The notes under the pieces are model-generated. The model had not been told where the DNA came from. It searched no databases and saw only the letters and a program-made list of their open reading frames with translations. From positions 14,780 to 78,779 of the forward strand of contig JAMCUI010000007.1 of assembly GCA_023379265.1 (NCBI GenBank): a stretch of 64,000 bases of DNA, read 5' to 3'. Numbering within the stretch: the first letter of the stretch is position 1; each line of letters starts with the position of its first letter. The stretch is from Patescibacteria group bacterium (GTDB lineage: Bacteria > Patescibacteriota > Microgenomatia > 2-02-FULL-39-11). A program made the position numbers and the translations under genes. Shown piece by piece: positions 27,406 to 61,140 of the stretch.

Positions 27406-27520
27406 CTGTATATTTTCCCTGCGTTGGCATTATCCAAATCAGGTTATATGGGTCATCCCGATATATTTCGAGAACTCTCAGCCTGATTTCCATCAAGCTC
27501 CCCATTTAATAATTAATATT
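27405..27520 (-). ncRNA. TPP (THI-box) riboswitch
   Basis: Minus-strand RNA contains GGGGAGC...GGCUGAGA...GAUGACCC...AACCUGAUUUGGAUAAUGCCAACGCAGGGA. This is a near-consensus THI element (CUGAGA; ACCUGAUCUGGAUAAUGCCAGCGUAGGGA). Confidence 0.85.
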
Positions 27521-43104: not shown

Positions 43105-45573
43105 CTATTGTATTGAATTATTAAATGCAAAAATCCTGTCAACCGAAGTGTCTGTAGAATAATATACTTCGCCAGTATTCCCCCCAGAAGTAGATTTGAA
43201 ATTTGCAGGAGAAAAGGAAAACTGGGGGGGGTAGGTAAATGATAATACAAAAGGCGCCACCTTATCACCCCCCTGTTTCTGGAAAAAAAGCTGATATTCT
43301 GAAACAGCTGTTGTAACAGGTCTGGGTAATGTATAAGTAACCTTCACAATTCCTTTATTTTCCGGAGCTATTTTTATAAGGAAGCCAAACGACATTTTAT
43401 CCAACTCATAATTTTGCAGGTCAACGTCATTGGCTGACATTGGAACGTCATTTAGCGTTACGCTATCCAGATGACTTCCCACCGGCACAAAGACACGGAT
43501 ATAATTAGTATATGTATCATTGCTGTAAATCTCTGGCGTGCTGGAGTTTTGATATGAAAGAGTTAAAACAGTAACAATCCTGCCATCTGCCCCTATCTTT
43601 TTTTCAACAGCCTCGGACTTGCTGACAAAATAGTTTGCTTTGTTCACGCCAAGATTTGCTTCGATGATTGAAAGATAATCGGGGTAACACTTATCGGGAT
43701 TTGACAAGTCATTAACCTCTCTGGTTGTAGAGTTAGACAGACATTTTACCTCCACTGTCCTTCCACCCCAACCCTGTTTCTCTATCAAATCCTGTGTTTG
43801 ACCGTCGTTGGAATACAAAAGTAGATTTTTTTCATCAAGCGACTGCTTAATAACGGGCAATAGATCCACCATGGTAAAACCTTTGTTAGAACTCAATCTA
43901 TCTATAAGGACATTTGTCATCGCCGTAAGAAAATCCCTCTTTTGTGTTGAACCCGGAAAAAACTTATTTTGTGAATAGTACTGGGCTTTGAAGAAAAAAT
44001 TCTCTGCGTTTATCTCGTCATTGTTAAAATCAGGCAACTTAACAGGACCAACTGTCTGCAGAATTTTTTGCACGACAAAGAGATTGAAACCAATCACGCC
44101 ATCAGCGCTTTTACCCAATTCTTTATTTAGAAAAAACTCTGCTTGAATACTTGATGCGGCAAAATCTGGATCAAAATTGCTGTCCCTCAGGAAAAAATTT
44201 GGCTGAGACATATATTTCCTAATAGGCAGGGGAGGATCAACGTGCCCTTTAAGCTGACCGTCAGCAGTGTAAACATCTTCTATCTTGAAATCCAAAATTT
44301 TACCATGATCAACTGCCAATAGGCCAAAAGACCCGATGAACCCTCCCGTTGGCCTAAGTTCCATACTATTTTGGAATAGAACCAAGTAAAGCTTGGGTTT
44401 GTCAGAAAGAAACAATTTTTCCATTACCGGCAACATATCCGACACTGATGATAAACGTTGGGAAATAGAGGTAAGAAATGAGAGGTAATCATCCTTGGGA
44501 AAGTATGGCAAATCCACTTCGTCCATCTGTTGTTTTGCTAGAACCATAGATTTTTGCAAAGATATAATTTTCTGATTGAGAGTGTCAAGATCACTTTGAG
44601 TTAAGCTTGAACTCTGGTTAATGAATCCTGAATTTTTTTTCTGAAACTCTATAGTAAATGCAAAAGCATCTTGTCCTGCTGTAAGTAAATCATCAGTTGC
44701 CGAAAGAACATCCCCAATACTTCTCATAAAAGTTGTTGAGCGCAAAGGAAAAAGTAGAGTATCCGAAACCCCGTAGATCTTCTTGGCTAGAAACAATTTA
44801 TTTTTTGCCTCATTCAAATCGATTAAAAGCGCCGTAGGATTGGAGGCTGCCATATCTTTTTGGAAACGGCCGGTAAGATCTTTTACTGAGGAGACATAAA
44901 ATAACATCGCTGAAAAACCAACAATAATTATCAATAAAATAAATAATCCGAAAACAGCAAAACTTTTTTTGGATACTAAGTGTCTTTTTTTTACAAGCAA
45001 AACTTTTTGTTTTTCTTTTGGAAAAACCTCATTGGTAGAAGTCAAAAAATTCTTTTTAACTTCAGGAACAAAATTGTGATTTTCAACAATTGGTTTTTTT
45101 TCTTCAAATGATCGGCTAAATGGTACAGTCTCTTTGGTAAATTTTCGGTAAATATCTTTTTTTAGTGACGATATTTTCCTGACATTTACTATTTCATAAT
45201 TGCTAGAAAATATAGTTTTCAGGAGTATATTAACCAACCTATCTGGATTCCAAAGGCTGATGTCGCCGATACGGACGATTTTTATGCCCCCGGGTTTTTC
45301 CGGTAGTACTTCTTTTTCCGTTTCTATAAAGAGGATTTTCCCGGTTGTCTTGAGATAATTTTTTTGGGCTATCTCAACTGCAGAAAAATTACCGAATTGG
45401 AAGATATAATCGAACTTTCCTAAAGCCGGATAGTATGAATCAGTTTTTGTCACATGGCAACTTAACTCTTCCAATTTTTGCGTAAGAAGATCTGCAATAA
45501 TTGCACCACCAATGATAAGCGTCTGAGGTAATTCTTTTTCCTCAACCAACTCCACAACTTTCCGTCTTTGCAT
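43105..45573 (-). CDS. DUF4012-domain membrane protein
   Basis: 822 aa. A ~200-aa N-terminal cytoplasmic region, a TM (FAVFGLFILLIIIVGF), then YLVLFQNSMELRPTGGFIGSFGLLAVDHGKI...DVYTADG, the hallmark of DUF4012. This family typically neighbours LCP genes. Confidence 0.6.
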   Translation of the reverse strand: MQRRKVVELVEEKELPQTLIIGGAIIADLLTQKLEELSCHVTKTDSYYPALGKFDYIFQFGNFSAVEIAQKNYLKTTGKILFIETEKEVLPEKPGGIKIVRIGDISLWNPDRLVNILLKTIFSSNYEIVNVRKISSLKKDIYRKFTKETVPFSRSFEEKKPIVENHNFVPEVKKNFLTSTNEVFPKEKQKVLLVKKRHLVSKKSFAVFGLFILLIIIVGFSAMLFYVSSVKDLTGRFQKDMAASNPTALLIDLNEAKNKLFLAKKIYGVSDTLLFPLRSTTFMRSIGDVLSATDDLLTAGQDAFAFTIEFQKKNSGFINQSSSLTQSDLDTLNQKIISLQKSMVLAKQQMDEVDLPYFPKDDYLSFLTSISQRLSSVSDMLPVMEKLFLSDKPKLYLVLFQNSMELRPTGGFIGSFGLLAVDHGKILDFKIEDVYTADGQLKGHVDPPLPIRKYMSQPNFFLRDSNFDPDFAASSIQAEFFLNKELGKSADGVIGFNLFVVQKILQTVGPVKLPDFNNDEINAENFFFKAQYYSQNKFFPGSTQKRDFLTAMTNVLIDRLSSNKGFTMVDLLPVIKQSLDEKNLLLYSNDGQTQDLIEKQGWGGRTVEVKCLSNSTTREVNDLSNPDKCYPDYLSIIEANLGVNKANYFVSKSEAVEKKIGADGRIVTVLTLSYQNSSTPEIYSNDTYTNYIRVFVPVGSHLDSVTLNDVPMSANDVDLQNYELDKMSFGFLIKIAPENKGIVKVTYTLPRPVTTAVSEYQLFFQKQGGDKVAPFVLSFTYPPQFSFSPANFKSTSGGNTGEVYYSTDTSVDRIFAFNNSIQ

Positions 45574-45667
45574 ATTGAATTTATTTTACTATACTTCTTG
45601 TTTATGGAAATACAACTTAAATAAGAATATGACCTAAGGGAATAAATATTTGGATAAGGGGAACGGA

Positions 45668-46096
45668 CTAATCCCGACTGTCCAATGCTTTATTTACCAG
45701 ATAATCTGCTCTTTGGTTTTTTTCCCTGGGGATATATGCGTATGAAATATTCCCTTTAACTTCTTGCTCTAACCGTCTTACCTGAAACATCAATTCCCTA
45801 AGATGTGCTTCCTTTACCTTAAAAAGCCCGTTTAATTGGTTTACTACTAATGTCGAATCGAGGAAAAAATGGATCTCTATTTGGTCACTTTGACCCTTTG
45901 TCGCCTTATCACTTTTTAACCATTTCAGTGCCTCAATTACTGCTGCATACTCAGCAACATTATTGGTCGTTTGCCCGATGTTTCGGGACAACTCCGCAAG
46001 AACTTGCCCGTTTTCGGTTTTTATGACTACACCAATGGCTGAAGGTCCCGGATTTCCCCTTGCACCCCCATCAGTATTGATCAATATAGAATCCAT
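45668..46096 (-). CDS. rnhA: ribonuclease HI family protein
   Basis: 142 aa. TDGGARGNPGPSAIGVV...NNVAEYAAVIEAL carries the RNase H1 DEDD-fold signature (DGG.RGNPGP; E in AEY). Confidence 0.75.
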   Translation of the reverse strand: MDSILINTDGGARGNPGPSAIGVVIKTENGQVLAELSRNIGQTTNNVAEYAAVIEALKWLKSDKATKGQSDQIEIHFFLDSTLVVNQLNGLFKVKEAHLRELMFQVRRLEQEVKGNISYAYIPREKNQRADYLVNKALDSRD

Positions 46097-46335
46097 ATGA
46101 TTTTTTACAGAATCGAAACTTAGGGATAACTACTAATATTCCGTTCGTTCTTGATTATTAATAATTTATATTATTTTCCCAAAAACAACAACAGGTCCGT
46201 GCAATGAAAAATTCAGATGAGGATCAGAAAATCCCAAACTTTCTATGTTTTCGTATTTTATATTACTAACAACTCTAACATTTACCGAAAGCAATAAAGT
46301 TATCCTGACTAAAATGATGAAATTTGTAGATAATA

Positions 46336-49300
46336 TTGCTTGACTTTCATCTGAAGCTGCTTTACGCTGAAATTATGGTTCATCTAGGCGAAAATCTACC
46401 AACACCGGCCGACGCAATTATCCGAGCAAAAACGACTTACGATATGGTAAGAAAACGTCTTGGTGGAACTGTTAATACAACATTAACGCCAATTGAAATA
46501 ATCCGGAATTATAACGCAAATATTACACAAGGCCAACCAACATTTAATGAAAATCATCCTGAAAATATAGAAGCTGTCCGAAATGCACAACGGTATCAGC
46601 GTGATATAAACATGATGGGTTTACAGCCCGATGATGAATCCAGCGTAGTACAGCAAAAAATTAGAGATTTGGGAACGCTGGTAGGAAGCCTGGCGACAGA
46701 ACCTGAAAACATACTTTCGCACCTCAGACAATTTCAAGAACATGGAGCAAGACTTGGGCTGACCGGATCAACAATTGAGGAAATGGCTGCAAGTGTAGAT
46801 ACGATCTTGGCATCTGATGCTCCACTTGTCGGACTAGATTTAAATCATGATTCTCTTTTGGATATTGCTACATCTGTTTATGACACCCGCCATGATGCTG
46901 AACTTTCGGGTATGGGGAATGCCTTTACCGCACCAATGGATGAAGCGCTTCATGCTGTGGACGATTTCCGGCAACATGCTGATCGGTTGGGCATTGTAAA
47001 TGCAATAGGAAGGAATCAGCGGCCTATGAATGAACTTTTGGGAGACTTGGCAGACAGGGCACAAAGAGCAGGAGCGGGGGGCGGTACAACAGTAGCTGAA
47101 CAATTTGCTGCCGTTGATAGATTTGGAACGTTTAGAACACAAGCCACAAGAAATATCCGCATGGGGAATATTGACGCTCTCACCCGACACCAGATAGAAA
47201 ACAGGTTGAGAGATTATGCAGAAAACCTGGAACTAAGTAGAGATGGCAATGTGGACGAGGTTATCGGAAGAATTGAGAATTTTCTTACTACACAGATACA
47301 AACAGCAGGGTACGACATCACACAAAACATACCAGATTTGGTACGAACCATAAGAGCAGACCAGGATATCCTTTTCCGAGACAATCAACAACAGGGGGCA
47401 AGACGTCAACAACAACAACATCGGATACAAGAAATCGTCAACCGCGCAATTGGACTACGTAATATGGTTGACGCCGCTCTAATCACTGATCGGACTAATA
47501 CTATGCCTCTTAGGGAATTGGGCAGCCATGTCATAAACGACGCACAAATTGCAGGTGGTATTAATATTCAACAAAACCAACGGCCGCGCCTGGCATATGA
47601 AATTGCCCAAGATATTAGAAACCTCAGAAATAGCGTAAGGGCTGCACATTTTGGAAACCTTGCCAATCGTAGGATGGAGGAAATGGCACGGCAACTACGA
47701 ATACAAGGTCCTGCGCTCAGAGTAAAAGACTCAGCCAACCAACCGTTAGCAGTTATCGTCAGTGCTGCTGATAAAGTAATCAAGGAGGAAATTGGGGCGG
47801 GTGTTGAAAACGCAGATGATCTTGCTAATTCATTGCGCACGATACAAACCGACGTACAAAAATTCAGAGTAGCTGCCAAAAATGCTGGAATCGATGATGC
47901 TGATAATGCCCAGACTCCTACTGAATCGATTACCATGGAATTGCAAGCACGCGCAGGAGTCGCTCAACTGGAAAATATTGACAATTTATCTCCAACTGAG
48001 ATCGCTCAAAAACTTGTCGAGTTCAATAAGAAAATAAAGACTGCAAAAGTAGAAGTTGTTGCGGGGGATTTTAGCACAACAGTTGATAACATCTATAATA
48101 CTGCGGGGTTACTCCAAATCCCGGATCATCTAGACCAAACTCCTGAGGAACTTCTCGGACAGATCACTACAATTCTTCAAAATACCAGAACAGCCGGGTT
48201 TGCCGAAGTTCAGGCCGGGCATGTTGGAGACCTTATTGATGAGATGAGACATACAACCGGAGCATTGAGACTGACACAGGATGCACCACTTACTGACATC
48301 ATCACTTCTGCCACACAATATCGCACTGATGCGCAAACAATGGGATATGACAGAAATGCAGATATTCAGACGGTTGCCGATAATGTCAGAGGATTCAGAA
48401 CTCTAATAACGAAAAATAATATTGCCGGAGCAAGTCTTACAGAACAGGTTGCTACACTTGAAACACATCGTGCCACACTTGGTCTACCAGACCATACTGC
48501 TGCCTACCAAATACTAAATACAGTGGAAACTACCAGACAGGATGCCATAAGGATTCAAACAGGTTTTGACGCATACAATCAAAACGTCGGCGAATCACTC
48601 CGAGTAGTCAATGAGTTTCGTGACCACGCGCAAGCCTCAGGAGTCGCAGACGCAAGGGGAGAACATCAGGTTGATATAACCCATCTCATGACAAATATCA
48701 ACACAGATGCCAGAGCTGCAGGAATTGACGCGACAGATACTTGGCAAAATAAATTCGACGCAATTACGGCTTTACGCCATGATGCAGAAACCATAGCCGG
48801 AATCCAAAACGTAAATAACACATCAATGGACAATATCAAAAGACAGCTTCGCGGCATTGCAGAAGCAATAGGTTTTACCTTCAACGACAGCACATCAATC
48901 AGAAATTTTCTCACAGGTATTGACCGGTTCAACAATCTGGCAGCTGGGGCAGGTTACCAAAGAGCTCCCGGCACATCTTATACAGATATCGCTTCCCAAA
49001 TAAGACAGGACGCCCAACAATATTTTAATATTAATCAAAACGACAATGGGGTTTCCCTGGAGACTAGATTGGCACGGGTGAAGACTTTGCGTGATCATGC
49101 AGAAAAAGCTAAATATACCGGGGATGTCAGGGCAGATCAATTGTCAAGCGTGGTTGCCTTTATAAACACCGAGGCACAGGCAGCTGGACTTGATAATGCG
49201 TTAACTTTGGAAGTCAAGGCGGATACTTTGGTTAAATTAAGACAAAGAGCGATAGCAAGAGGGATAACCGATGCAAATACTGCACTTATGTCCACTTTAG

Positions 49301-51210
49301 CAGTAAATATCAAAACCGCAGGTACTGCAATCGGAAAAACTGGAAGTCTTGATGAAATATTAATAGCACTTGAGGAAACAAGCAGTCAAAGCGCTAGAGC
49401 AACCAGCGCTGTAGTTCCTCCTGCCGCCGACGCTCTTAGAATACAGGCTGAAAGAGTTACTAACTTAAGGCAGTTATTATCCACAGCGCTTCCCGGCGTT
49501 GACACTACTGGTAATTTGGATCCACTAATCGTTACGCTTCGAAATGATGCTACAGCAGCCCAAATAACCATAAATAACGCCGAGCTTCCTGAAACCATTG
49601 CTCAAAGACTGATAGATTTCAGAAGAAATGCTGAAGATGCCAGAGTTTTTGGGGCCATGACCCAAAGAGATATAAATGTCGTCGTAAGTCAAATCAGACA
49701 AGATGCCACAGTCCTTAATGTCGCAAACGCAAATGCTGACACACCGGCTAATCTTACTGCAGTGATCCACGGAATAATTCAAAGAGCCAGAGCTGCCGGC
49801 TTTCCGGATATTACACCGACAGCTGATTCGGCCAGAAACTTCAGAAATACTTTGACAGCTGCTGGCAACATACTTCACGCTGCTGCCAATGCGACACCGG
49901 ATGAGATCATAAATCTGGCCCGTACATACAGAGATAACGCCTTGGCAATCGGTATTGCCACGGCAAACACTGACATGCTTGAAGGTGATACCGGAGTAGT
50001 CAGAAGAGTTGACAATTTCGTGACTCTTGCTAATAATTACGGCTTTGCCGGTGCCAGATATGCCGATATAGAACCACAGATAAATACCATCAATCGTGCA
50101 TCACTAGGCCTCACCGCTGCAGCCACACGGGAAACAGTACTCAATGCAGTTGTTGAGAGAAAAACCCTAACAGGAAATATCGGAATGGCCAATGCCAGGG
50201 GAGCTGATATTGCCAACGTCATAAATGCTATTGACCAGTTTTGGACCAACGTGCAACACACCAACATTCCCGAGTTTACTCAAGCACACGCAGCAAGAAA
50301 TCTTGAACAACTACGACCCCTGCTTCGCACTCAAGCGGATATTGTAAACGCCTCTCCTACCGCAACACCCAGAGAAATGATTGTGACTATCGGAAATTTT
50401 AGAACAGACGGCGGGTTGATAGCGGTACCCAACGCCAATAACTGCCCTCTTGCCACAATAAGAACTGCTATAGATTCCTTTATAGGTGAAGCCGAAAAAG
50501 TTGGAGCGCCTAGAATAAATCCTGCCACTGGAGCAATAAATGATGTACAAACAATTGTGAATGACGTGAGGACAATTGCTCAAAATCTGGGAGTAGCAAA
50601 TGCCATGGCAGATTCAATACCAACAATTCTTCCACAAATTTTATTCTTTCAGGAAAGAGTCCGTCAAGAAACATCTCTTATCCATGATGCCGGACCCGGT
50701 AGGGCACGAATTGATATTGCCAGAGTAGATTGGTTAAACACTCAAACCAATGACGCAGCGGCTCAAATCATGCTACTACATAATATAGCTATATTGACTG
50801 GAACAGATATTCGTCGCAACGGCCACAATGCAAGACCTGACAATGGAGGAATCATCGCGGTTCAGCGAAACAGAATCGTTGCTACAAGAGCAGGAGCCAA
50901 CCCAGCGGTTACTGCTGATTTAGATATAGAAGATCAAAATATGAGAGAGGTGCAAGCCTATTTGGCTGGTTTCAATCGAATGAATATATCAAATCTTCTT
51001 GGGCTTATTACAACACGCCAGATTATGACTGACCCCACCGTACCAGCAGGTCTTCGTCAGGCATTTAAGACTATACCAAGCGAGGTATGGACACGACTTC
51101 CTCAGGCCGGACCTCTTCGTGGAATGAACCCAAATCGTTTATACACAATCAAAGTTGCCAGAATACTTGCTGGATTGCCGGTAGAACAGATAAATGGAGC
51201 AATTATTTAG
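46336..51210 (+). CDS. giant (about 1610-1624 aa) Ala/Arg/Gln/Thr/Asn-rich protein built from ~35 degenerate ~45-aa repeats; function unknown
   Basis: The long ORF starts at TTG 46336 or ATG 46374. It has no TM and no signal peptide. A recurring motif (F/L/I)R-x-(D/H/N)A-x-x-x-G-(I/L/F/Y)-x-x-A appears about every 40-50 residues. Examples are FRQHADRLGI, FRDHAQASGVADA, LRQRAIARGITDA and YRDNALAIGIATA. G+C is markedly higher than the flanks. Confidence 0.55.
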   Translation: MLDFHLKLLYAEIMVHLGENLPTPADAIIRAKTTYDMVRKRLGGTVNTTLTPIEIIRNYNANITQGQPTFNENHPENIEAVRNAQRYQRDINMMGLQPDDESSVVQQKIRDLGTLVGSLATEPENILSHLRQFQEHGARLGLTGSTIEEMAASVDTILASDAPLVGLDLNHDSLLDIATSVYDTRHDAELSGMGNAFTAPMDEALHAVDDFRQHADRLGIVNAIGRNQRPMNELLGDLADRAQRAGAGGGTTVAEQFAAVDRFGTFRTQATRNIRMGNIDALTRHQIENRLRDYAENLELSRDGNVDEVIGRIENFLTTQIQTAGYDITQNIPDLVRTIRADQDILFRDNQQQGARRQQQQHRIQEIVNRAIGLRNMVDAALITDRTNTMPLRELGSHVINDAQIAGGINIQQNQRPRLAYEIAQDIRNLRNSVRAAHFGNLANRRMEEMARQLRIQGPALRVKDSANQPLAVIVSAADKVIKEEIGAGVENADDLANSLRTIQTDVQKFRVAAKNAGIDDADNAQTPTESITMELQARAGVAQLENIDNLSPTEIAQKLVEFNKKIKTAKVEVVAGDFSTTVDNIYNTAGLLQIPDHLDQTPEELLGQITTILQNTRTAGFAEVQAGHVGDLIDEMRHTTGALRLTQDAPLTDIITSATQYRTDAQTMGYDRNADIQTVADNVRGFRTLITKNNIAGASLTEQVATLETHRATLGLPDHTAAYQILNTVETTRQDAIRIQTGFDAYNQNVGESLRVVNEFRDHAQASGVADARGEHQVDITHLMTNINTDARAAGIDATDTWQNKFDAITALRHDAETIAGIQNVNNTSMDNIKRQLRGIAEAIGFTFNDSTSIRNFLTGIDRFNNLAAGAGYQRAPGTSYTDIASQIRQDAQQYFNINQNDNGVSLETRLARVKTLRDHAEKAKYTGDVRADQLSSVVAFINTEAQAAGLDNALTLEVKADTLVKLRQRAIARGITDANTALMSTLAVNIKTAGTAIGKTGSLDEILIALEETSSQSARATSAVVPPAADALRIQAERVTNLRQLLSTALPGVDTTGNLDPLIVTLRNDATAAQITINNAELPETIAQRLIDFRRNAEDARVFGAMTQRDINVVVSQIRQDATVLNVANANADTPANLTAVIHGIIQRARAAGFPDITPTADSARNFRNTLTAAGNILHAAANATPDEIINLARTYRDNALAIGIATANTDMLEGDTGVVRRVDNFVTLANNYGFAGARYADIEPQINTINRASLGLTAAATRETVLNAVVERKTLTGNIGMANARGADIANVINAIDQFWTNVQHTNIPEFTQAHAARNLEQLRPLLRTQADIVNASPTATPREMIVTIGNFRTDGGLIAVPNANNCPLATIRTAIDSFIGEAEKVGAPRINPATGAINDVQTIVNDVRTIAQNLGVANAMADSIPTILPQILFFQERVRQETSLIHDAGPGRARIDIARVDWLNTQTNDAAAQIMLLHNIAILTGTDIRRNGHNARPDNGGIIAVQRNRIVATRAGANPAVTADLDIEDQNMREVQAYLAGFNRMNISNLLGLITTRQIMTDPTVPAGLRQAFKTIPSEVWTRLPQAGPLRGMNPNRLYTIKVARILAGLPVEQINGAII

Positions 51211-51592
51211 TAGAAGAAGAACCTGGTAAAGCCTTTCCATTCACTTCAACTTTCGAAGAAATCATTTGTTTGAATTCATCTCTTAACTGCGTAATCGTCT
51301 CGCTCTCTTGTTGTTCACGCAAATCACGCATAAATTTTTGATATACCTGATCTTCTATTTTCCTATATAAACTCTTATCCATTGATCTTTTTCCTTCTTG
51401 TACATCCAGAAGCGCTCTTTCAAATTCATATTGGATGTTGGCCTTTAGATAGTCATAGTATGCTGACCATAAGATTTTCTCTAGCATCAGTTTCTGGTCG
51501 GGAGTATATGACCCGATTTTAGCAAGAGTATCCTGCCTGACTTTTTCATCAATCGGCAGGAATTTAAGAAGCTGCTGCGTCGTTACAACCAT
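51203..51592 (-). CDS. hypothetical protein
   Basis: 129-aa charged helical ORF, convergent with the giant gene. No motifs recognised. Confidence 0.35.
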   Translation of the reverse strand: MVVTTQQLLKFLPIDEKVRQDTLAKIGSYTPDQKLMLEKILWSAYYDYLKANIQYEFERALLDVQEGKRSMDKSLYRKIEDQVYQKFMRDLREQQESETITQLRDEFKQMISSKVEVNGKALPGSSSTK

Positions 51593-51607
51593 ATTTACCT
51601 TAAAAAT

Positions 51608-53761
51608 TTAGACAGGATAATTTTCAATTCTATTCTCTACCACTTTCATCATATCAAATATTGCCAATTGTAAATCTACACGAGATAAGCTTCCCCCTTC
51701 ATAAAGAGTTCTTAAGGCTGAAAGCGCTTGTTCCAACCTGTCGCCAGGATTTAAGGTCAACTCAAACCGCTCAACTAGAATATCTGCCACTGCTTCCGGA
51801 GGTAAAAGCTCAGAAGCCCATCTGGCATGGTCAACCGCCTGAACGCCACCCGGAACTCTTCCAAAAACAAGTCTCTGTATCATGCTATAACCGTGAAGAA
51901 GCGTCACGTTGGTTCTTGTAGCATCACCCGGTGGCGCTACAATCGTCTCTTGAGATATATCAGTCAAACTTTGCATGGAAAACTCCTGTTGATTATCAGG
52001 ATCATTAAGTTCTCCATGAATCTGTCCGTATCTAAGAAGTGCAGCCTTTGCAGTGTCGATTATGTGTATAACATCTTCTGATGCCGATATAGGCTTTTCC
52101 GCATCTTTAACCACTTCACTTAGTCTCAAAATTTCAGTTTCTAAATTGGTTATCTCACCCGTCAACTGAGTGACCTCCTGATCTTTTACCTGCCGTTCTC
52201 GCTCTTTTGTCGGAATACTGGCTAAATCTCTTTTCACTTCAGTTAATCTCGTTTGTTTTGCAGCCAATCCTCTTTCAGTATTTCGCCTATCAACTTCAGC
52301 CAGCCTTGAATTAAATTCCGCTTCATCTTCCTGCCACTCGGTTTTATATTGCCGAGCCAGTCCTATATTATTATGAACCATTGCATCATTATAAAGTCTT
52401 CTATTTTCACGACGAGCCTCCTCTTTTTCCCTTTCGATAGTACTTCTTGCCTCGGTCATTTCTCTTATTTCCCCCTCCAAATTTCCCTGTTCCTGCTGTA
52501 AACTTGCCTGGTTGTTTCTTAAACCCTGCAACTCTCCCTCAAGTCTTGTAACTGCTTCCCTTGCAGTTTGCAATTGAGATCTTTTTTCTGTTCTTCTGGC
52601 CTTTGCATCCTCTAACTCCTCACCCCGCATCTGTTTTTGAGCTTCTGTCATTCTCGGTTTTGCTGCTGCAGCCCTTTTAGAATCAAGTTGCTCGATTACA
52701 GGTCTAAATACCTTTCCAGGCTCAGTATTAAGTAATTCCAACGCCCTCTCGGTAAAATGCACTACAGTCTCTCTCTGAGCCTTATCCCATATTTCCACCC
52801 TCCGCTGTTGAGATAAAGGACCAACAAACATACCTCCCTCTCTTGCTCTTCTCATCCTATAACCATTCCACCGACTTGCAACGTTATATCCCAAAGCATC
52901 TGGATTTACCTGTGCATTTCCCGCTGCAGTTAAGGCAAAGGAATCCCAACTGGTAAAATTACCCATCATATTTAGCTTTACCCCCAATAGATGATAAAGA
53001 TCGGCGTGCGCCCGACCTGTCTCCATTAATTCAGTCACCACCCTATCATCTGTTGCCAAAGAATTATCTCTCATATATTCCAAATAGGCTCTCTCCTCAG
53101 CTGGTAAAAAATTCCAGCTGATTGCTCCCGCACCTCTGTTTAATACGAGCCTGCCTTGAGCATCTATTAATCCAAAAGCATCAACAAGCTGATTTATCGC
53201 TTGCCTCACACCCTCACTTAATCTTTGTATTTGACCGGCATACGCATCCAAAACCACTTCTCTATCGGCAGGCCGGGGGACATCCCCTCTTGCACCTGTC
53301 ATCGCTTCCTGTCTAACCATAAGTTTGCGGAACAATTCAGTTTCAGACATGACGTGAATAGCGATTATTCCTGCCTCTGATTTTACTAGTTCGCTAAAAT
53401 CACCGTTCGCCCTTTTATAGAGTTCAAGAAATGTCTTCTGATCTGCTAACAAAACTCCTCCCGCATCCTGATATTGTTCAAGTTGAGCTCCAATATTCTC
53501 TCCCATCTTTTGGTATTCCTTCATTACTCTTGGATCAGCAATTATTTCATGGAGAGCTGGCCTACCAAATTCTCTTCCTTTCCATTTTGTTACATTTGGT
53601 TGAGATGGAGTACGTTCGTGAGGCGCATTCCTTTGCTGAGGCTCAGGAGTATCCACATGAGGGCGAGGCGTGTTTGCCGCCGGAGCCATAGCAGCAGGTT
53701 CTATAGTTGTATGAGCCGGTGGCATCGCTTGCGGTAATGTATCTGGAGTCGCTTGTGCCAT
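51608..53761 (-). CDS. coiled-coil protein with Pro/Ala-rich N-terminus (717 aa)
   Basis: The N-terminal ~60 aa are P/A/T-rich. The central ~250 aa have strong heptad, coiled-coil character (RLEGELQGLRNNQASLQQEQGNLEGEIREMTEARSTIEREKEEARREN...). There is no TM. G+C is elevated. Confidence 0.45.
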   Translation of the reverse strand: MAQATPDTLPQAMPPAHTTIEPAAMAPAANTPRPHVDTPEPQQRNAPHERTPSQPNVTKWKGREFGRPALHEIIADPRVMKEYQKMGENIGAQLEQYQDAGGVLLADQKTFLELYKRANGDFSELVKSEAGIIAIHVMSETELFRKLMVRQEAMTGARGDVPRPADREVVLDAYAGQIQRLSEGVRQAINQLVDAFGLIDAQGRLVLNRGAGAISWNFLPAEERAYLEYMRDNSLATDDRVVTELMETGRAHADLYHLLGVKLNMMGNFTSWDSFALTAAGNAQVNPDALGYNVASRWNGYRMRRAREGGMFVGPLSQQRRVEIWDKAQRETVVHFTERALELLNTEPGKVFRPVIEQLDSKRAAAAKPRMTEAQKQMRGEELEDAKARRTEKRSQLQTAREAVTRLEGELQGLRNNQASLQQEQGNLEGEIREMTEARSTIEREKEEARRENRRLYNDAMVHNNIGLARQYKTEWQEDEAEFNSRLAEVDRRNTERGLAAKQTRLTEVKRDLASIPTKERERQVKDQEVTQLTGEITNLETEILRLSEVVKDAEKPISASEDVIHIIDTAKAALLRYGQIHGELNDPDNQQEFSMQSLTDISQETIVAPPGDATRTNVTLLHGYSMIQRLVFGRVPGGVQAVDHARWASELLPPEAVADILVERFELTLNPGDRLEQALSALRTLYEGGSLSRVDLQLAIFDMMKVVENRIENYPV

Positions 53762-53834
53762 AATTTCAGCCTAGCAAATGAGGTAGGGAAATGCAACTGC
53801 CGGCAAAATATCTTTCGAACAAATACTGGAAAAT

Positions 53835-55781
53835 GTGTCAGCCGCTATGTATGATAGAAGCATGGTACTAGCTGAAGCACCGGTCACACCACCAGTTGTA
53901 GAAGCACCACACGCTCCCGCGCCTTATGTGGAACCTAAACTCCCCGGTGAAGCACCTGAACAAGCGGCTCCCGGAGAGGATGCACGACTCCATAAAGATT
54001 TCAAACAACTTATTCAGATTGACGGGACAGCCAACGGTAACAGGGCATTGGTTGATAGGGGATACGCCAAAAAAGAGACAGTTACCGCGGAATTTAAGGC
54101 AGCGGGGAAAAATGTAGGGGATGCTGCAGTACAGCAGGAAATTGATACTGAAGTGCAAAGAAGAGAAACGGAACAGCAGGATGCTAGAAAACCCAAAAAA
54201 GAAGACGCGTCAGAGGAAATGATTGCGGCTGAGGCAAAAAAGATGGCGGCAGAGGACGGACCATGGAAAGGAAAAGACGCGAATGACCCTGCATTGAGGG
54301 AAGAAGCTGCCCTTAGAGCGGCACAAAAAAGGATTGACGGATTGACAGGCGCTTATGACATTCTTTATACCGCACAGGACGCTGTAGCCTCCTACAATGC
54401 TGCTGTAGAAAGCGCCATCCAAGGGGAGGGCAACCGGCTTATCCAAGAGGAAATTGCAAAAAGGAATGCCCAGGCTCATCTTAAAACTCCTCCCGATCCT
54501 GATATTACTGATTTACCTGATGGGGAAAAAGAACAAATTAGAGCTGGAATTAATAGAAGTGAAGTCGGGAAAAGAGTCAAAAGAGAAGATTATTATGATC
54601 CGGACAATCGCAAATATCACAAAGTTGGCGCAGACGGAAAACCGACTGCAGACGTAGTCTCCTACGACGACGCGTACGAAGCCATGTATGAAGAACTCAT
54701 CAGAGTCTCTGGCTTACCACCTGCTGCTGACGGTACACCCAATCCTGATGCTGAAAGAGCCCAACAACTGTTAAAGTCACTTCACTACAATAGGGATGAA
54801 AATGCCTTCCAGGTATATACTCCGGAGCAAAAAATGCTCAAAGAGCGTGAAGCAGGACAGGAACTCCTTATCCAGACAGCCGAAAATGTCTTTAACTCCA
54901 TTTGCGACCAGGGAGTACCGCCAGCAAAAGAAGCGTCTTCGCTTGTTTCCTCACTCGGACTCTTTCTTGACCGCTTAAAAACAACCAACCCCCCGCTTAA
55001 TCCTTTACAACGCAACATGGTTCTGGCAGCTATAAATGAGAGACTGATGGGTCTTGCCAATGCCCAAACAGCAGTCATTGTCTCCGCAGAAGACGCCCGA
55101 ATGCTTGATATGCTGAAGAAAAAACCAGGCGCTATAAGACAGCTAAACGCTTTCAAAAACAACCAGGCGCTTAAAGGCATGATGAGTGACATACACAGTT
55201 CTATAAAACAAGGTTATGTGGATATCATAATGGGCACCACCCAGCACGACGTAAACATGGAACATTTCTTCCAGTCAGTTAGCCTTGCTGCGCTTTGCCG
55301 GGAACAGGGATTGACTAAACCGTCGGAAGTAAAACGGATACTGGTAAAATTCAAGATAGCCCTGACAGCTGGAGATCAACAATTGATAACTTTCCTTGCA
55401 GGGGAAGACACAGGGGGAATACGCACAAAACTTCCGGGGGGTAAAAAAGAAAATACCAACCTTGACCAAATGCTCGATCTTATAGGCATGAACGCTAAAG
55501 ATATAGGCGATTTCCCCAAATATATAGCTGCCAACGCTAAACGGATTGTGGAAAACGCGGCCATGCCTGGAGAAACCAGCCAGGCAAACTGGGCAGAAGT
55601 TGCCAAAAACAGGGAAGCCGCGCTTCGCGGTCATGCAGTGATAGCAGAAAAGTTCGTCAAAGATCCAAAGTTTAAGCTTGATGCAGGAAAAATTCTTATG
55701 CTTATTATGGGCGGTGGAACAGTCATGGGATTAGTACAACCAATACTCGAAACAAACCCCGAAGAGAAACAACAAACATGA
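53835..55781 (+). CDS. Pro/Ala-rich protein with C-terminal tail-anchor TM (648 aa)
   Basis: The N-terminus is PVTPPVVEAPHAPAPYVEPKLPGEAPEQAAPGEDA. There is a single C-terminal hydrophobic segment ILMLIMGGGTVMGLVQPIL followed by an acidic tail. It is divergent from the 717-aa gene across a 73-bp spacer. Confidence 0.45.
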   Translation: MSAAMYDRSMVLAEAPVTPPVVEAPHAPAPYVEPKLPGEAPEQAAPGEDARLHKDFKQLIQIDGTANGNRALVDRGYAKKETVTAEFKAAGKNVGDAAVQQEIDTEVQRRETEQQDARKPKKEDASEEMIAAEAKKMAAEDGPWKGKDANDPALREEAALRAAQKRIDGLTGAYDILYTAQDAVASYNAAVESAIQGEGNRLIQEEIAKRNAQAHLKTPPDPDITDLPDGEKEQIRAGINRSEVGKRVKREDYYDPDNRKYHKVGADGKPTADVVSYDDAYEAMYEELIRVSGLPPAADGTPNPDAERAQQLLKSLHYNRDENAFQVYTPEQKMLKEREAGQELLIQTAENVFNSICDQGVPPAKEASSLVSSLGLFLDRLKTTNPPLNPLQRNMVLAAINERLMGLANAQTAVIVSAEDARMLDMLKKKPGAIRQLNAFKNNQALKGMMSDIHSSIKQGYVDIIMGTTQHDVNMEHFFQSVSLAALCREQGLTKPSEVKRILVKFKIALTAGDQQLITFLAGEDTGGIRTKLPGGKKENTNLDQMLDLIGMNAKDIGDFPKYIAANAKRIVENAAMPGETSQANWAEVAKNREAALRGHAVIAEKFVKDPKFKLDAGKILMLIMGGGTVMGLVQPILETNPEEKQQT

Positions 55782-55796
55782 AGTCTGAACTAAATT

Positions 55797-56507
55797 ATGA
55801 TCATCCAGATTTTGCTATTCCTCATATTACTTATCCTTCTCTATTTTATTAGCAAAAAAATCTCTTCTGCAATTTATACTATATTTCTTCTAATATCGAA
55901 AAACAAACATTTTACAAACATTCTATTGGCGCTTATATTCTTACCCGGAACCATTCTTCATGAGATGTCCCATTTCCTTGTCGCAACGGTACTTAGAGTA
56001 CCCACAGGAAATCTGTCGGTTCTTCCAGAGCAGGAAAAAGAGGGGGAAATAAAGGCTGGGAAATTGGAACTTGGCAAAGCTGATCCTTTCCGATATTCCT
56101 TAATAGGCCTTGCGCCAATTTTGACCGGCCTAACTGTTATCTTTATTTTAGGCAAAAACTATGGTTTAGAGCTTAATTTTTTGCTTAACTTCAAAATAAC
56201 AGTCATACAACTTGCAGTATTTTTCGTTTCTATAATTATCTCAGTCACTATGTTTTCCAGCAGAAAAGACGCAGAAAGCTTGATCATTTCAGGTCCGATT
56301 ATTTTACTAATATCCATATCTTTATACCTGATAGGAGTAAGGGTCATCCTCAATCAAAATCTGGCAGAAGCAATTACGGCCTTTTTTACAGACATCAATA
56401 AGTATCTATTGTTCATTCTTATACTAGACTGGCTTCTACTGATAATATTGCAACTAATGGTAAATCTTTTGAGTAAAATATTGGGAAGAAAATTTATTGA
56501 AAGATAG
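55797..56507 (+). CDS. polytopic membrane protein with intramembrane HExxH (HEMSH) motif, putative zinc metalloprotease
   Basis: 236 aa with about 6 TM helices. HEMSHFLVA lies at the end of TM2. Composition is host-like and AT-rich, starting 16 bp after the GC-rich block. Confidence 0.4.
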   Translation: MIIQILLFLILLILLYFISKKISSAIYTIFLLISKNKHFTNILLALIFLPGTILHEMSHFLVATVLRVPTGNLSVLPEQEKEGEIKAGKLELGKADPFRYSLIGLAPILTGLTVIFILGKNYGLELNFLLNFKITVIQLAVFFVSIIISVTMFSSRKDAESLIISGPIILLISISLYLIGVRVILNQNLAEAITAFFTDINKYLLFILILDWLLLIILQLMVNLLSKILGRKFIER

Positions 56508-56511
56508 AAAT

Positions 56512-59500
56512 TTAAGTTGTGGAGGCTGATGTTTTAGAATCCGCAGCACCTTCTTTTACCCCCGTATCTTCCGTAGGTAAAACTGGCCCTGTATCTGCGG
56601 CGGGAGACTGACTTTGATCTAAAGAGGTATTTTGTTGAAAATAATCACTCAAGGGATTCTGACTTTGAGCTTCTTGTACCGGTGAATTATTCTCCTGTGG
56701 AGACACGCTAACGGTTTTATCCTTACCCTCCTCACTTGATACCTCCTGCATGCTGAAATCCTTTACTTGGGTTTCCGGATTTCCTGTATTTGGTTTATCT
56801 TTTTGACCTGCCGCTTCAACTGACGTCCCAGATGGTTTCTGTTCCATTTCCTTTACTAATTCACTGGCGCATTTGGGACAGGAAAGGGGAGAAGCATCAT
56901 CTGTTTTCCTCTGCCAGATATTGGAACAGTTAAGACACTGGTATGATTTGGAGTCTTCTTGAGGTTTGTTTCCCCCAGGCACTTCTTCTACCTGTGGATT
57001 TTTTGTCTTATCATCTACCACAGCTGGCTTTTTAAGCTCCATCTTCTTTACGTTAAAAGCTAGTTGCTGCCCGTCATAATCCACCATTACCGTATCACCC
57101 GCAGCTAATTCTCTTTTTATAAGAAGAGAGGAAATTTCATTCTCTATAAGACGTTGCATTGTCCTGCGCAAAGGCCTGGCGCCAAATACGGGATCATAAC
57201 CCACCTCGGCTAGATACGTCTTTGCATCATGACTGATATCTATAGCAATATCCTGTTCCTCAAGCAGTTTAGAAAGAGCTTTCACCTGAAGTCCTACTAT
57301 TTCCACCATATGTTTTCTGGTCAACGGTCTAAAAACTACCACCTCGTCAAAACGATTAAGAAGTTCCGGACGGAAAAACTTGCGCAACTCTTCCATCAGG
57401 CGATCCGCCAATCGAGCAAACATCTCATCTTCTCCACTATCGGATTTTTCCTCGTCTTTATTCTCCAAACCCAAAGGAATAATATCTTCAGGCTTTTTAG
57501 TCTGTGCCTCTACTGTACTAAACAATTTCACCATCTTTCCAGAAATCCATTCGGTTGAATCCGTATTTGCTCTCTGGAAATAACGTCCGACAGCAACGAT
57601 TAATTCCTCACCAGTAGGCTTAAAAACGTGTTGATCCCATTTTTCAATAGGAAACTCAATCTTTTCCTCGTCTTTAGGATTAATCTCAACTCCTGTTTTA
57701 TCCTCTGACTGTTGTGCATTATCAATTCTTTTCTCACTTGTATTTACCTCAACCTGATTGGTGCCGCCATTATCTGTTTTATTGTTTACGGTTTTTAATT
57801 CGTCTGTCTTTATATCTCCACCTGAAATATCCGAACCGTCTGTTTTTTCTTTCCCTTCCGGTGTTTTTCCTATAGAAACAACGTCTGCGCCCTTCAACGT
57901 ACATCCCGTAAAATACTCAGCTAGCGTACCCGTAGTCCAATCTGTTGTCTGCAAATTCTCCCTTAGCCAAAACCTGTCTCCGAAAGAAACCACTTCAGTA
58001 TTGGTAGGGGATACAGCATGTGTATCAATCCTCGCAGTAGGCAACTGTTCTTGAGGCCGGTCAGGAAGAGCATTCACCACTACACCTCCTTTTACATAAT
58101 CCAAAAGAGATTTTTGTGTCCATTCTTTGGTCGTTGTTGAGGTACGCTGCCACAACCTATCGTCAAAAGTTATAATTTCCGAGCCGTCAGGAGCGATAAG
58201 ATGAGTATCTATACCGTCCTGAGGGAAATCTTTTTCTCCCTCTGTTACCGTGGAACCGGCAAAATAGTCTAAGAGTGAAGAAACTGTCCAGAACTTATCG
58301 CTTCCTTCCTTCTCCCACAGTTTTCCCTTAAAACTCACAAGTTCCCGTCCAGTTGGCGAAATAGTATAAGTACTAAAAATTTCCTTTTCTTTAGTTTCAT
58401 GACTTTCTTCATTATTTTTTGACTTATCACTCCAACCCAACATTTCATCCTGGATGATACCGCTACCTAGATTGGAAGTACAAATAACAATGGTATTCTT
58501 GAAAGAAATGGTATGTCCTTTATTATCAGTCAACCTACCATCATCTAGAAGCTGTATAAGAATATTAAAAACATCTGGATGGGCTTTTTCTATTTCATCA
58601 AATAAAACTACTGAATATGGTCTTCTTCTCACCGCTTCAGTTAATTGCCCTCCCTCTTCATAACCAACATATCCAGGAGGCGCACCAATTAATTTTGCGA
58701 CCTCGTGCTTTTCCATATACTCGGTCATGTCAAGCCGGACGATCATCTCCTCGCTTCCAAAAAGTATCTCAGCTAAAGCTTTCGCCAACTCTGTTTTCCC
58801 TACTCCGGTTGGTCCCATAAAGATAAAACTACCAATCGGCCTCTTGTTTGATTTAAGTCCTGCCCGGCCGCGTCTGACTGCTTCGGCTACCGCCAATACC
58901 GCATCTTCCTGATCTATAAGCCTCTTATGGATAATATCCTCCAGACTCATCAACTTTGTCGATTCGCTTTCAGTCAACCTGCTTATTGGAATATTTGTCC
59001 AGCGGGAAACAATATCGGCAATTATATCCGGCCCGACAATATTGGTCGTAGTCGATTTCTTTACCTGATATTGCTCTTTAAGTTCTGTTTGGGCCTGCTC
59101 CAATTCCTGAATGTCTTTTTTTATAGTCTGGAGGTGAACTTCATCTCCTAATTTTTCCGCTTCTTTTGCTTCACTATCCAACTTTTTCAATTTATCTTCG
59201 CCTTTTTTTATTTCCTCCGGTAAGGAAATTGCGGGCAATCTTACAGAAGCCGCAGCTTCATCAATTAGATCAACTGCTTTATCAGGCAAAAACCTGTCAC
59301 CAATATAACGCTGTGATAGTTTTACAGCTGCATCCAAAGCCTCGTCTGATATTTTTACACGGTGAAAAGCTTCGTATTTATCACGAAGAGCAGAAAGCAT
59401 TTCAACGGCCACATCAGCTGTAGGCTCCAAAACATATACTGGCTGAAATCTTCTTTCAAGTGCTGGATCCTTCTCCACATATTTTCTGTATTCAGTCACT

Positions 59501-60843
59501 GTTGTCGTCCCTATCACCTGCAATTCACCACGGGCAAGGGATGGTTTAAGAATATTTGACGCGTCCATGGTTCCTTCACCACCAGAACCCGCTCCCACCA
59601 TATTATGCAACTCATCAATAAAGAGAATAATTGCTCCACTTGCGGCCTTGACTTCTTTAATAAGGTTTTTCAACCTCTCTTCAAACTCCCCCCTATGCTT
59701 TGCTCCGGCGATAAGAGACATCAAGTCAAGCAATAACACTCTTTTATGAAGAAGGGTTTCCGGAACATCTCCATGAGCAATGCGAAGAGCCAAACCCTCT
59801 ACAATTGCAGTCTTACCCACGCCCGCATCTCCGATTAACACAGGATTATTTTTAGTTCTTCGTGAGAGTATGTGAATGATACGTTCAATCTCAGTACTTC
59901 GGCCAACCACCGGATCAAGCTGTCCCTGGGCTGCTTTAGCGGTTAAGTCTTCAGTGTATTCCTCAAGGGCAGAACTGGTCTTTTTCTCCTCTTCTTTCTC
60001 TAATTCTTTCTTTCCTGTTATCTTTTTATTCAACACCTCAGGCTTCAAATTGTATTTAACTAAAGTTCTTGCAGCTAGGCCTTCCCCTTCATGCGAAAGA
60101 GCCAATAATATATGCTCTGGAGAAACAAACTCGTACCCTAAAGATCTTGCAGCAGACAACGACAACTCAAGCACCCGCTTCACTCGGGGGGAAAACTGCG
60201 GTTGCCCGGAAAAATTGCCTTGTTTGAAACTTTTCTCCAATTCCGTTTGTATCTCTGATGGAGTAGCCTTACATTCGGAAATAATCTGGTAAATACTGCT
60301 ATCTCGAAGAAGCCCCCAAAGCACATGTTCTGTATCTATGTACTGGATTTTCAACTCTTTTGCTTTTCCCACAGCACTCATTAGAGCAGTATTCGCTCTT
60401 TGGGTAAGTCGAGAAAGAACGTCCATTCCAGCTCTCTTTTTCATATCTATATTCGTCTGACCATCACTTGAAGTGTCTTTTTTTTGTGGGGTATTTTTAT
60501 CTTTTTGCTGTTGTTCTGTCTTTCCTTTTGATTGGTCTGGTTTTTGAGAAACACTATTCTGCTGCTGTCCGACAACAGGCGGCTTGCCTATTCCAGAAAA
60601 AGCTTTACCACCAGGAGGATTACCAATTCCCGAATAACTTGTGCCTGATGGGGAATTACCTATCCCTGAATAAGAAGTGTTTGTATCTTGCACGGTATCC
60701 GAAGCCGCTTGGGTTGAGTTTTTTGTAATGGTAACTACCCGTTGGTCTACATCTTGACCACCCGTAGCATCATTTTGCTGACTCTTGCCACCTGAAGCGT
60801 CTTTTTTCAAGTATCTGCTGAAATTAAAAAGTCCTGCGGGCAT
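56512..60843 (-). CDS. ClpB/ClpC-like two-ring AAA+ chaperone with GS-rich N-terminal leader, large D2 insertion of four novel repeats, and C-terminal zinc ribbon
   Basis: 1443 aa. Clp-N repeats. D1 Walker [16 protein letters not shown] short M-domain coiled coil. D2 Walker [15 protein letters not shown] and TSNLGS. The '[15 protein letters not shown]' sensor motif (standard spacing from TSNLGS ~45 aa) is then delayed by about 340 aa, a stretch carrying four copies of H-x-x-x-P-x-G-x-E-(I/V)-x-x-F-...-W-...-W-T-...-L-x-x-Y-F. There is a CxxC...CxxC zinc ribbon near the C-terminus. The true start may be the internal Met near 60444. Confidence 0.75.
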
Positions 60844-61140
60844 AAATTATTTCGGAATGCAATTATAATTTTCAGTCATATGCTCCATAAATTGCCTACC
60901 ATTTACCATAGATTTCCTAGAGCAAAAATTCTAGAACACAGTTCTAGTTAAACATGGCTGATAAAATCTGTCAATACTAAATAAAATGGGTAAAAAAAAC
61001 TTTTCACGGAAAATTAATCTATTTAGGTCATAATATGACCTGGAAAGCCTTACTTGCAAGATAATTTTTCACATTTTACGCTAGAAACAGTTATTGTTTT
61101 GTAGTCCGTATAAGAATTGTACACTAACTGACAACGACTT

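Follow-up and report, generated by a model that had tools for sequence, protein, structure and literature searches.

Two large genes stand back to back in a 64,000-nt stretch of DNA (the window) from a metagenome-assembled genome of the Patescibacteria (candidate phyla radiation; CPR), and the locus raises the question of what their products do together, which neighbouring genes belong with them and where in the cell they act. An earlier note on this DNA had described divergent open reading frames (ORFs) of 717 and 648 aa, here termed p717 and p648, and had proposed that they are functionally linked as a system. Both ORFs are confirmed, and the linkage is borne out by a divergent pairing that is retained in all nine loci with a p717 relative. 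As a description of the system, the pair is incomplete: a small helical protein (p129) and a membrane protein with an HExxH motif (p236) are also conserved members and had been overlooked. The p717-p648 pair is tentatively regarded, at somewhat less than even confidence, as the core of a rare, lineage-restricted module of three to four genes. All four proteins fall outside described families; the conserved module is real and new, as is the hyper-divergent block of DNA at this locus. The four genes are as follows.

51608..53761, minus strand: p717, 717 aa, defined from the ORF list, a 73%-identical orthologue (P0002) and nine remote relatives.
53835..55781, plus strand: p648, 648 aa from a GTG start at 53835, with further possible starts at ATG 53847 and ATG 53862.
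51203..51592, minus strand: p129, small helical protein, downstream of p717 after a 15-nt gap.
55797..56507, plus strand: p236, polytopic membrane protein with PGT..HE..H and MFSS.KD as invariant motifs, starting 15 nt after p648.

A divergent gene pair and its conserved companions

Both members of the pair are real genes under purifying selection, with ratios of nonsynonymous to synonymous substitution rates (dN/dS; window against close relative) of 0.135 for p717 and 0.067 for p648. Orthologues are available for both proteins, at 73% identity for p717 (P0002) and at 99% (P0003) and 83% (P0004) for p648; p717 is named by NCBI 'hypothetical protein M1271_01690 [Patescibacteria group bacterium]'. 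Direct comparison of the two proteins excluded that they are paralogues. The start of p648 affects the size of the region between the genes: the 73-bp gap given previously holds for the GTG start, but becomes 85 bp with the ATG at 53847 chosen by NCBI (644 aa) or 100 bp with the ATG at 53862 (639 aa), the latter being the best fit to the conserved −10 geometry described below. The low-complexity N-termini previously reported for both proteins are supported by significant proline enrichment, with 13 prolines in the first 58 aa of p717 against 3.0% in the rest (binomial P=1.6e-8) and ten in the first 46 aa of p648 against 4.5% in the rest (P=3e-5). N-termini rich in Pro, Ala and Gly are also present in seven of eight remote p717 relatives.

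Evidence for a module comes from comparison of nine loci, namely the window, its close relative L001 and seven contigs from remote relatives, which are independent of one another and distant. At each of them, a single p717-family gene is divergent from a gene for a 315-645-aa protein with a C-terminal hydrophobic helix, across a gap of 57-100 bp; the search for homologous gene pairs that had been suggested as a check thus returned p717 relatives in pairs at 9/9 loci and never singly. A p129 homologue follows the p717 relative directly at all nine loci (27-50% identity; gap −29 to +32 nt). Homologues of p236 (~235 aa; 30-50% identity) adjoin the module at seven, usually directly downstream of the partner gene, although in L010 the homologue lies at the other end of the module. 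In genomes where the pairing persists, neighbouring housekeeping proteins are at 61-74% identity and the flanks are rearranged or invaded by toxin-antitoxin (TA) genes. In L008 the trio of p717, partner and p129 genes is flanked by dnaA and dnaN, and in L003, L006 and L010 TA cassettes lie beside the trio, never inside it. Linkage of the trio therefore resists rearrangement of its flanks. The TA and abortive-infection (Abi) cassettes next to the module comprise DUF433/DUF5615, HicAB, MNT/HepT (twice) and AbiEii (L003 7403-7995 and 12658-13168; L006 5710-7554; L010 927-1755).

The two transcription units appear to be controlled by a compact shared region, recognized from its sequence pattern and conserved position.

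53762..53861, no strand assigned: control region with two back-to-back sigma70-like promoters.
53768-53773 and 53791-53796, minus strand: predicted p717 promoter, with −10 box TAGGCT and −35 box TTGCAT respectively.
53827-53832 and 53850-53855, plus strand: predicted p648 promoter, with −35 box TGGAAA and −10 box TATGAT respectively.

The pattern TTGCA[AT]-N17/18-TAnnnT occurs upstream of the p717-family gene at 7/9 loci, while the rest of the intergenic DNA is unalignable; in L006 and L008, one palindromic TTGCAA provides the −35 box for both directions. The pattern is not over-represented in the window (six occurrences against 5.2 expected), so that its weight as evidence comes from its conserved position alone. 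The control region is free of inverted and direct repeats. Each −10 box in the window lies 6 nt from an ATG, which suggests that the predicted p717 and p648 mRNAs are leaderless or near-leaderless and that p648 would start at 53862. The same design as in the L006 and L008 modules recurs at 61030-61082 of the window, where a ClpB-like gene and a PrgI/type IV secretion system (T4SS) operon are also divergent around a common palindromic TTGCAA −35 box.

It could be argued that these genes are unrelated, fast-evolving neighbours that remain adjacent through inherited synteny. All of the loci belong to one narrow clade in which synteny is widely conserved (RNase H-DUF4012-L25 and ClpB-PrgI-TrsD-VirB4), and the partner proteins are not demonstrably homologous. 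However, the trio is intact where the flanks differ (L006, L008 and L010) and beside insertions, the compact common promoters are conserved, and the p717-p129 junctions are tight or overlapping. In addition, the position of the C-terminal helix is kept in eight independent partners, for which the probability under a uniform null is 1.4e-9. Coincidental adjacency is thus considered highly improbable.

Architecture of the four proteins

p717 is the founding member of an unannotated family of ~600-790-aa proteins. A phmmer search with its N-domain against 1.84 billion cluster representatives recovered nine remote relatives (E 9e-9 to 3e-4), eight of 606-791 aa and one a 191-aa fragment, which align to p717 over its full length at ~20-25% identity and have a common architecture; pairwise tblastn comparisons gave E values of 1e-12 to 3e-25. 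The family is narrow, with ten matches at E<=0.001 among these representatives, including the window protein. Other routes added little: word-indexed protein searches, even with the family alignment, returned close orthologues only, with a candidate list probably saturated by coiled-coil words, and back-translated motifs run against genome, metagenome and viral contigs recovered no relative beyond the one already known. Four segments can be distinguished in p717.

53588..53761, minus strand: residues 1-58, Pro/Ala/Thr-rich, predicted disordered N-terminus, poorly conserved (dN/dS 0.32).
52646..53587, minus strand: residues 59-372, conserved helical N-domain (dN/dS 0.062), the query that found the family.
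52097..52645, minus strand: residues 373-555, coiled coil, probable antiparallel hairpin with its tip at 463-465 and arms of ~90 residues.
51611..52096, minus strand: residues 556-717, conserved helical C-domain with motifs GY... and LLP..LA.IL in alignment A3 (dN/dS 0.15).

Coiled-coil and transmembrane (TM) segments were assessed by Kyte-Doolittle hydropathy, heptad periodicity and AlphaFold2 (AF2), the last run on two-sequence alignments for p717 and p648. Within p717, AF2 is confident only at ~373-555, where the predicted local distance difference test (pLDDT) score is ~85-92; residues 1-58 score ~25-30 with no secondary structure, and confidence in the C-domain is low. The coiled coil is shorter than the ~250-aa uninterrupted one described earlier, as it spans ~183 aa (373-555) with breaks at 417, 463-465 and 497-498. 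Its modelled helices occupy residues 373-416, 418-462, 466-496 and 499-555, with a break exactly at the centre. A hydrophobic periodicity of 3.5 residues is evident when averaged over the family, as 0/2000 shuffles reach the value of arm 1 and a fraction of 0.006 that of arm 2; in the window protein alone, the corresponding fractions are 0.0015 and 0.107. A proline or glycine marks the mid-point of the coiled coil in 6-7 of ten family members, and the family's three major length differences (+17, −25 and −31 residues) all fall at the centre of the coiled coil. Taken together, the central break, the mid-point Pro/Gly and the centre-confined indels suggest that the modelled coiled coil probably doubles back into an antiparallel hairpin with ~90-residue arms, which would join the N-domain and C-domain.

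This predicted arrangement would resemble that of SMC, Rad50, JetC and LmuB proteins, in which N- and C-domains are also split by a fold-back coiled coil, though matches of the p717 family extend only to the arms. Foldseek comparison with the PDB gave top probabilities of 0.9-0.97 to SMC arms and also to the antiparallel arms of chemoreceptors, all at E>0.01, and no match at E<0.01. Sequence and profile searches of the PDB yielded coiled-coil matches only, and the SMC model TIGR02168 was set aside for p717 (18.9 bits against a cut-off of 567, coiled coil only), as was a DUF4407 match of P0007 for the same reason. Unlike SMC-type proteins, p717 has no Walker A, Walker B or ABC motifs, its arms are ~90 residues long rather than hundreds, and kleisin or nuclease partners are absent. 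A regular-expression scan found no Walker A (GxxxxGK[ST]), Walker B, ABC signature (LSGG) or other catalytic motif in any of ten family members. Apart from one Gln and one Glu, the invariant residues of the family are Gly, Trp or hydrophobic; in the N-domain part of the family alignment (A3) they are L104, Q108, F111, L112, G131, E142, L219, G260, W272, W298 and A328. The lack of invariant catalytic-type residues and NTPase motifs fits a structural or binding role, and p717 is suggested by its sequence to be a structural protein. In six of the ten family members, the N-domain is interrupted by a Gly/Ala-rich hydrophobic insert of 19-49 aa, and the three longest inserts (42-49 aa; P0005, P0011 and P0012) are bilobed around a Pro-containing turn.

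The partner protein p648 has a polar, Pro-rich N-terminus without a signal peptide, and its AF2 model is poor (pLDDT 41, mostly helical). Its most constrained region is the C-terminus.

55692..55778, plus strand: C-terminal hydrophobic helix of p648, ILMLIMGGGTVMGLVQPIL, followed by the 10-aa acidic tail ETNPEEKQQT (dN/dS 0.022).

The single TM helix and acidic tail described previously correspond to the only hydrophobic stretch in the protein, 29 aa from the C-terminal end. It comprises residues 616-634 of 644, with a 19-residue Kyte-Doolittle mean (KD19) of 1.86, and no other 15-aa window reaches 1.8. A single hydrophobic helix within ~40 residues of the C-terminus, with no signal peptide or other TM segment, is the sequence hallmark of a tail anchor and is found in 9/9 partners, p648 included, with weaker hydrophobicity in L010 and L012. 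The most hydrophobic 15-aa window of the partner lies 24-37 aa from the C-terminal end at all nine loci, and there is no other hydrophobic segment. The partners of L003, L009 and L011 are mutually significant in comparison, and no relation was found between p717 and the distant-locus partners. Searches of Pfam, PHROG, NCBIfam, PADLOC and the PDB gave no family or structural match for p648, and a match to MakA was dismissed (E 0.006; 15.6 bits against a cut-off of 320). The earlier description of a membrane-tethered scaffold is a reasonable reading of these data, given the conserved C-terminal helix of the partner and the hydrophobic N-domain insert in 6/10 p717 relatives.

Less can be said of the two companions from their sequences. 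An AAGGT sits 6 nt upstream of the p129 ATG. The p129 family has no family match apart from a weak, below-threshold match to DUF5663 (E 0.02) in one of seven members; DUF5663 comprises CPR-restricted small proteins of unknown function. At L010 (5408-6451), the p129-family domain is fused to a disordered, Pro/Ser/Glu-rich C-terminal extension of ~230 residues, giving a protein of 347 aa. For p236, H55-E56-x-x-H59 is invariant within PGT..HE..H and the HExxH lies in a predicted membrane helix, as in M50 peptidases. Nothing significant was found for p236 in Pfam, NCBIfam or PADLOC, but three of four members match Peptidase_M50 at the HExxH region below the cut-off (E 0.027-0.19). The canonical second metal-ligand motif of M50 (NxxPxxxLDG type) is absent, and MFSS.KD supplies a noncanonical Asp. 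On this basis, p236 is a candidate M50-like intramembrane metalloprotease. More generally, Pfam, PHROG, NCBIfam and PADLOC held nothing beyond coiled-coil noise for p717, p648, p129 and the neighbouring giant protein p1624.

Chromosomal setting and divergence of the locus

The trio lies in a region that differs sharply between the window and its close relative L001, whose genomes are ~93% identical.

45500..55800, no strand assigned: hyper-divergent block containing RNase H, p1624, p129, p717 and p648.
46336..51210, plus strand: p1624, giant degenerate-repeat protein present only in the window and L001, a neighbour and not part of the core.

Nucleotide identity in the block is 65-83%, compared with 92-95% in the flanks, and synonymous divergence (dS) is 0.74-1.45 against 0.22-0.36. 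As dN/dS is low throughout (0.07-0.15), the block is, as read from the sequence, an allele that is either old or recombined and is held by purifying selection, and not a decaying region. A mosaic patch of 88-93% identity inside p1624 (47000-48500) suggests recombination. The G+C content at third codon positions (GC3) of the four module genes equals that of their neighbours (0.33-0.41), so the locally higher G+C content reflects proteins rich in Ala, Arg, Pro and Gly and not foreign DNA. Given this GC3, and because a tblastn search of phages and plasmids gave no match to the module, an origin from a mobile element was rejected. Divergence is also pronounced at greater distance, where the ClpB-like, L25, RNase H and TrsD-like proteins are 61-74% identical to those of L003, whereas p236 is at 50%, p129 at 41% and p717 at 23%, and the partner is unrecognisable. 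The contig that contains L001 and L002 (CAZFNL010000079.1, GCA_964520615.1) is titled 'uncultured Gammaproteobacteria bacterium'; it is collinear with and ~93% identical to the window and is probably mis-binned.

The earlier note had tentatively placed p1624, the adjacent giant repeat protein, in the same apparatus as the pair. This part of the proposal fails, since p1624 is confined to the window and its close relative and is absent from all seven distant loci; it is therefore not part of the module. Its slot between p129 and RNase H is an insertion hot spot, occupied by HicAB and small ORFs in L003 and by nothing in L009 and L011. The protein shows a weak periodicity of ~26-27 residues, no homologue outside the one close relative and an extreme composition (1.7% Lys and 7.9% Arg, where the window medians are 7.9% and 3.9%). 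The p129 and p1624 ORFs are convergent and their 3' ends overlap by 8 nt (51203-51210). A cytoskeletal filament system that includes p1624 could draw on the real coiled coil and membrane anchor, on the location of p1624 in the same divergent block and on its Ala/Arg-rich, Lys-poor composition, which is like that of p717. However, the seven distant loci keep the module without p1624, and a hairpin with ~90-residue arms that joins N- and C-domains is not a filament-forming coiled-coil architecture, making such a system very improbable.

A further alternative is a defence or abortive-infection module in a variable island, with p717 as a coiled-coil sensor acting with membrane-acting partners and a protease. 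Such a function would accord with the TA/Abi genes that abut the module in L003, L006 and L010, with hyper-divergence of the block between close genomes and with the matches of the PADLOC LmuB and JetC models to the p717 family (best E 4e-9, for P0007). These matches are mostly in the coiled coil, however: those of the window protein, P0005 and P0010 lie inside it, while the best LmuB stretch of P0007 (59-455, 34 bits) spans the N-domain too, and ATPase and nuclease motifs are absent throughout the family. PADLOC gave no match for p648, p129, p236, p1624 or two distant partners. Moreover, the module is neither patchy nor mobile but keeps one chromosomal slot at all loci, its GC3 is that of its neighbours, and it has no phage, plasmid or viral-contig match. 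A defensive role is on balance improbable.

Downstream of the module lie the genes of a T4SS.

61141-62634, plus strand: PrgI/VirB3-like protein, 497 aa, carrying a long extension that is coiled-coil and Thr/Gln-rich (Pfam PrgI score of 36.8 bits; cut-off 27).
62669-63349, plus strand: TrsD/TraC-like protein, 226 aa, with NCBIfam TrsD/VirB4 N-terminal matches.
63511-63999, plus strand: matched part of VirB4, whose start is inferred near 63346 and which runs off the window (tblastn, 61% to the L008 VirB4).

The first of these genes begins 5.4 kb beyond the pair, and they are 4-6 kb from the module in the window, L003 and L008, which are all the loci with that side visible. The replication-origin genes rnpA, yidC, jag, dnaA and dnaN lie beside the module in L006 and L008. 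T4SSs are widespread in Patescibacteria, where they are origin-proximal and relaxase-less (PMC12102498; PMC11665869). They are essential for epibiotic growth in the one species tested, though their role and substrates are unknown (PMC12102498; PMC11665869), and T4SS components and accessory genes are usually found within 20 coding sequences of virB4 (PMC12102498). Pfam and NCBIfam profiles for T4SS components (VirB1/2/3/4/6/8, TrsD and the type IV coupling protein) did not match p717, p648, p129 or p236.

This proximity underlies the main rival explanation, in which the coiled-coil protein, in most lineages with its hydrophobic hairpin, and the tail-anchored protein would be T4SS substrates that insert into the membrane of the host bacterium, with p129 as their chaperone or adaptor. 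Besides the 4-6-kb distance to PrgI, TrsD and VirB4 in 3/3 visible loci and the usual location of T4SS accessory genes near virB4, this proposal would account for the fall in identity of p717 to 23% and the loss of any recognisable partner next to neighbours at 61-74%, as well as for deep allelic divergence between near-identical genomes. By analogy, the moderately hydrophobic segments, disordered termini and small co-transcribed protein resemble effector-plus-chaperone pairs, and both the divergence and the moderate hydrophobicity would be better explained by secreted substrates than by a resident scaffold. Chlamydia Inc proteins, translocators of type III secretion systems (T3SS) and Dot/Icm effectors are membrane-inserting proteins with dedicated chaperones. 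The module is like them in the bilobed 42-49-aa segment of three relatives, the coiled coil, the disordered termini, the small co-transcribed protein, the rapid divergence and the proximity to a secretion system. However, similarity to these proteins does not go beyond coiled-coil noise (IncA, E 0.075), no sequence or fold likeness to any effector, translocator or chaperone was found, and the window p717 lacks the hairpin. In addition, dN/dS is low and not indicative of diversification, the partner shares its transcript with a resident polytopic membrane protein (p236), each genome has one copy in a fixed place, and T4SS proximity may reflect common origin-proximal synteny. Secretion of these proteins is thus considered unlikely. 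A more elaborate version, in which T4SS cargo would build or anchor an epibiont-host conduit in the host membrane, with p129 keeping the cargo soluble and hyper-divergence reflecting host specificity, is decidedly unlikely.

Some other features of the window were recorded. Between p236 and the T4SS genes, at 56512-60843 on the minus strand, lies a gene for a ClpB/ClpC-like AAA+ protein of 1443 aa, with a long low-complexity N-terminus, a C-terminal zinc ribbon and, behind the second ATPase domain, an insertion of four ~45-aa repeats in tandem (..P.G.E...F....W.......W...L..Y..). Its L003 counterpart, 61% conserved, also lies between the module and the T4SS genes. RNA features at 440-512, 1696-1768, 4568-4640, 11453-11569 and 27398-27514 are two tRNA-Met, a tRNA-Ile (anticodon TAT), a cobalamin riboswitch (just above threshold) and a thiamine pyrophosphate riboswitch.

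A putative membrane-tethered complex and its significance

The preferred interpretation, held with some reserve and short of even confidence, is that the module encodes a lineage-restricted helical complex tethered to the cytoplasmic membrane. Its two operons would fire from the back-to-back promoters, such that the components are made together. p717 would have a disordered Pro/Ala-rich N-terminus, with its N- and C-domains meeting at the base of an antiparallel stalk with arms of ~90 residues (~13 nm). p129, translated from the p717 mRNA, would likely be a binding partner or stabiliser of p717. Given the absence of a signal peptide and the single C-terminal hydrophobic helix, p648 would enter the membrane after translation, as a tail-anchored protein that remains largely cytoplasmic, and p236, a polytopic HExxH...D protein co-transcribed with p648, could process or turn over this anchor. 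With no signal peptides and with hairpin- or tail-type anchors, the proteins are predicted to lie mostly on the cytoplasmic face of the membrane, and the site of action is probably the cell membrane. We infer membrane topology, physical interaction and a protease role for these proteins from the features described above.

Several observations weigh against such a tethered scaffold. The C-terminal helices of the partners are only moderately hydrophobic (KD19 0.9-2.1) and could instead be protein-binding or peripheral helices, and the window p717 has no hydrophobic N-domain insert or hairpin. p648 has no detectable homology to the distant-locus partners (blastp; hhalign probability 0.2), so that conservation of the partner rests on its position, orientation, C-terminal helix and, at most loci, Pro-rich N-terminus. 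p236 is missing in L006 and L008, lies outside the hyper-divergent block and remains below the PF02163 gathering cut-off (11.5 bits against 27.2; E 0.027; profile positions 3-34 only). AF2 confidence is low for p648 and for the globular domains of p717. Part of the synteny may reflect common inheritance rather than selection, since the loci are all from one narrow clade. Finally, a purely cytoplasmic scaffold offers no obvious explanation for the extreme divergence.

The building blocks of the tethered complex, namely a coiled-coil scaffold, a tail anchor and an intramembrane metalloprotease-like protein, are of familiar kinds. Operons of SPFH proteins (flotillin/stomatin) and NfeD encode a membrane-hairpin coiled-coil scaffold beside a membrane protease-like protein. 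The likeness to these operons is an analogy of organisation only, as no Band_7/SPFH or NfeD domain was detected in the module, its hairpin is internal rather than N-terminal, and it has an additional tail-anchored partner and a small protein. A second parallel is provided by M50 site-2 proteases and their single-pass substrates (RseP/RseA and RasP/RsiW), as p236, with its HExxH and downstream Asp, is co-transcribed with p648, and p648 resembles an RseA/RsiW-type substrate in its predicted large cytoplasmic domain, one membrane helix and very short external tail. Unlike RseP and RasP systems, p236 has no PDZ domain, no sigma factor is encoded nearby, the M50 hidden Markov model (HMM) covers the HExxH helix only, and p236 is missing at 2/9 loci.

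The comparison defines three unannotated protein families, with alignments for p717 (A3), p129 (A5) and p236 (A6) that can be converted to HMMs. Should the module be only a resident scaffold, its interest would be modest, as another lineage-specific set of hypothetical proteins. The origin-proximal site near T4SS genes and the strain-variable block point to a role at the envelope or host interface and not in core metabolism, and we infer such a site of action from location and divergence pattern only. Patescibacteria depend on host cells. The module, which is conserved, near T4SS genes, predicted to be membrane-associated and located in a fast-diverging, strain-variable block, is thus a concrete candidate for involvement in the biology of the envelope or host interface in one of their lineages.

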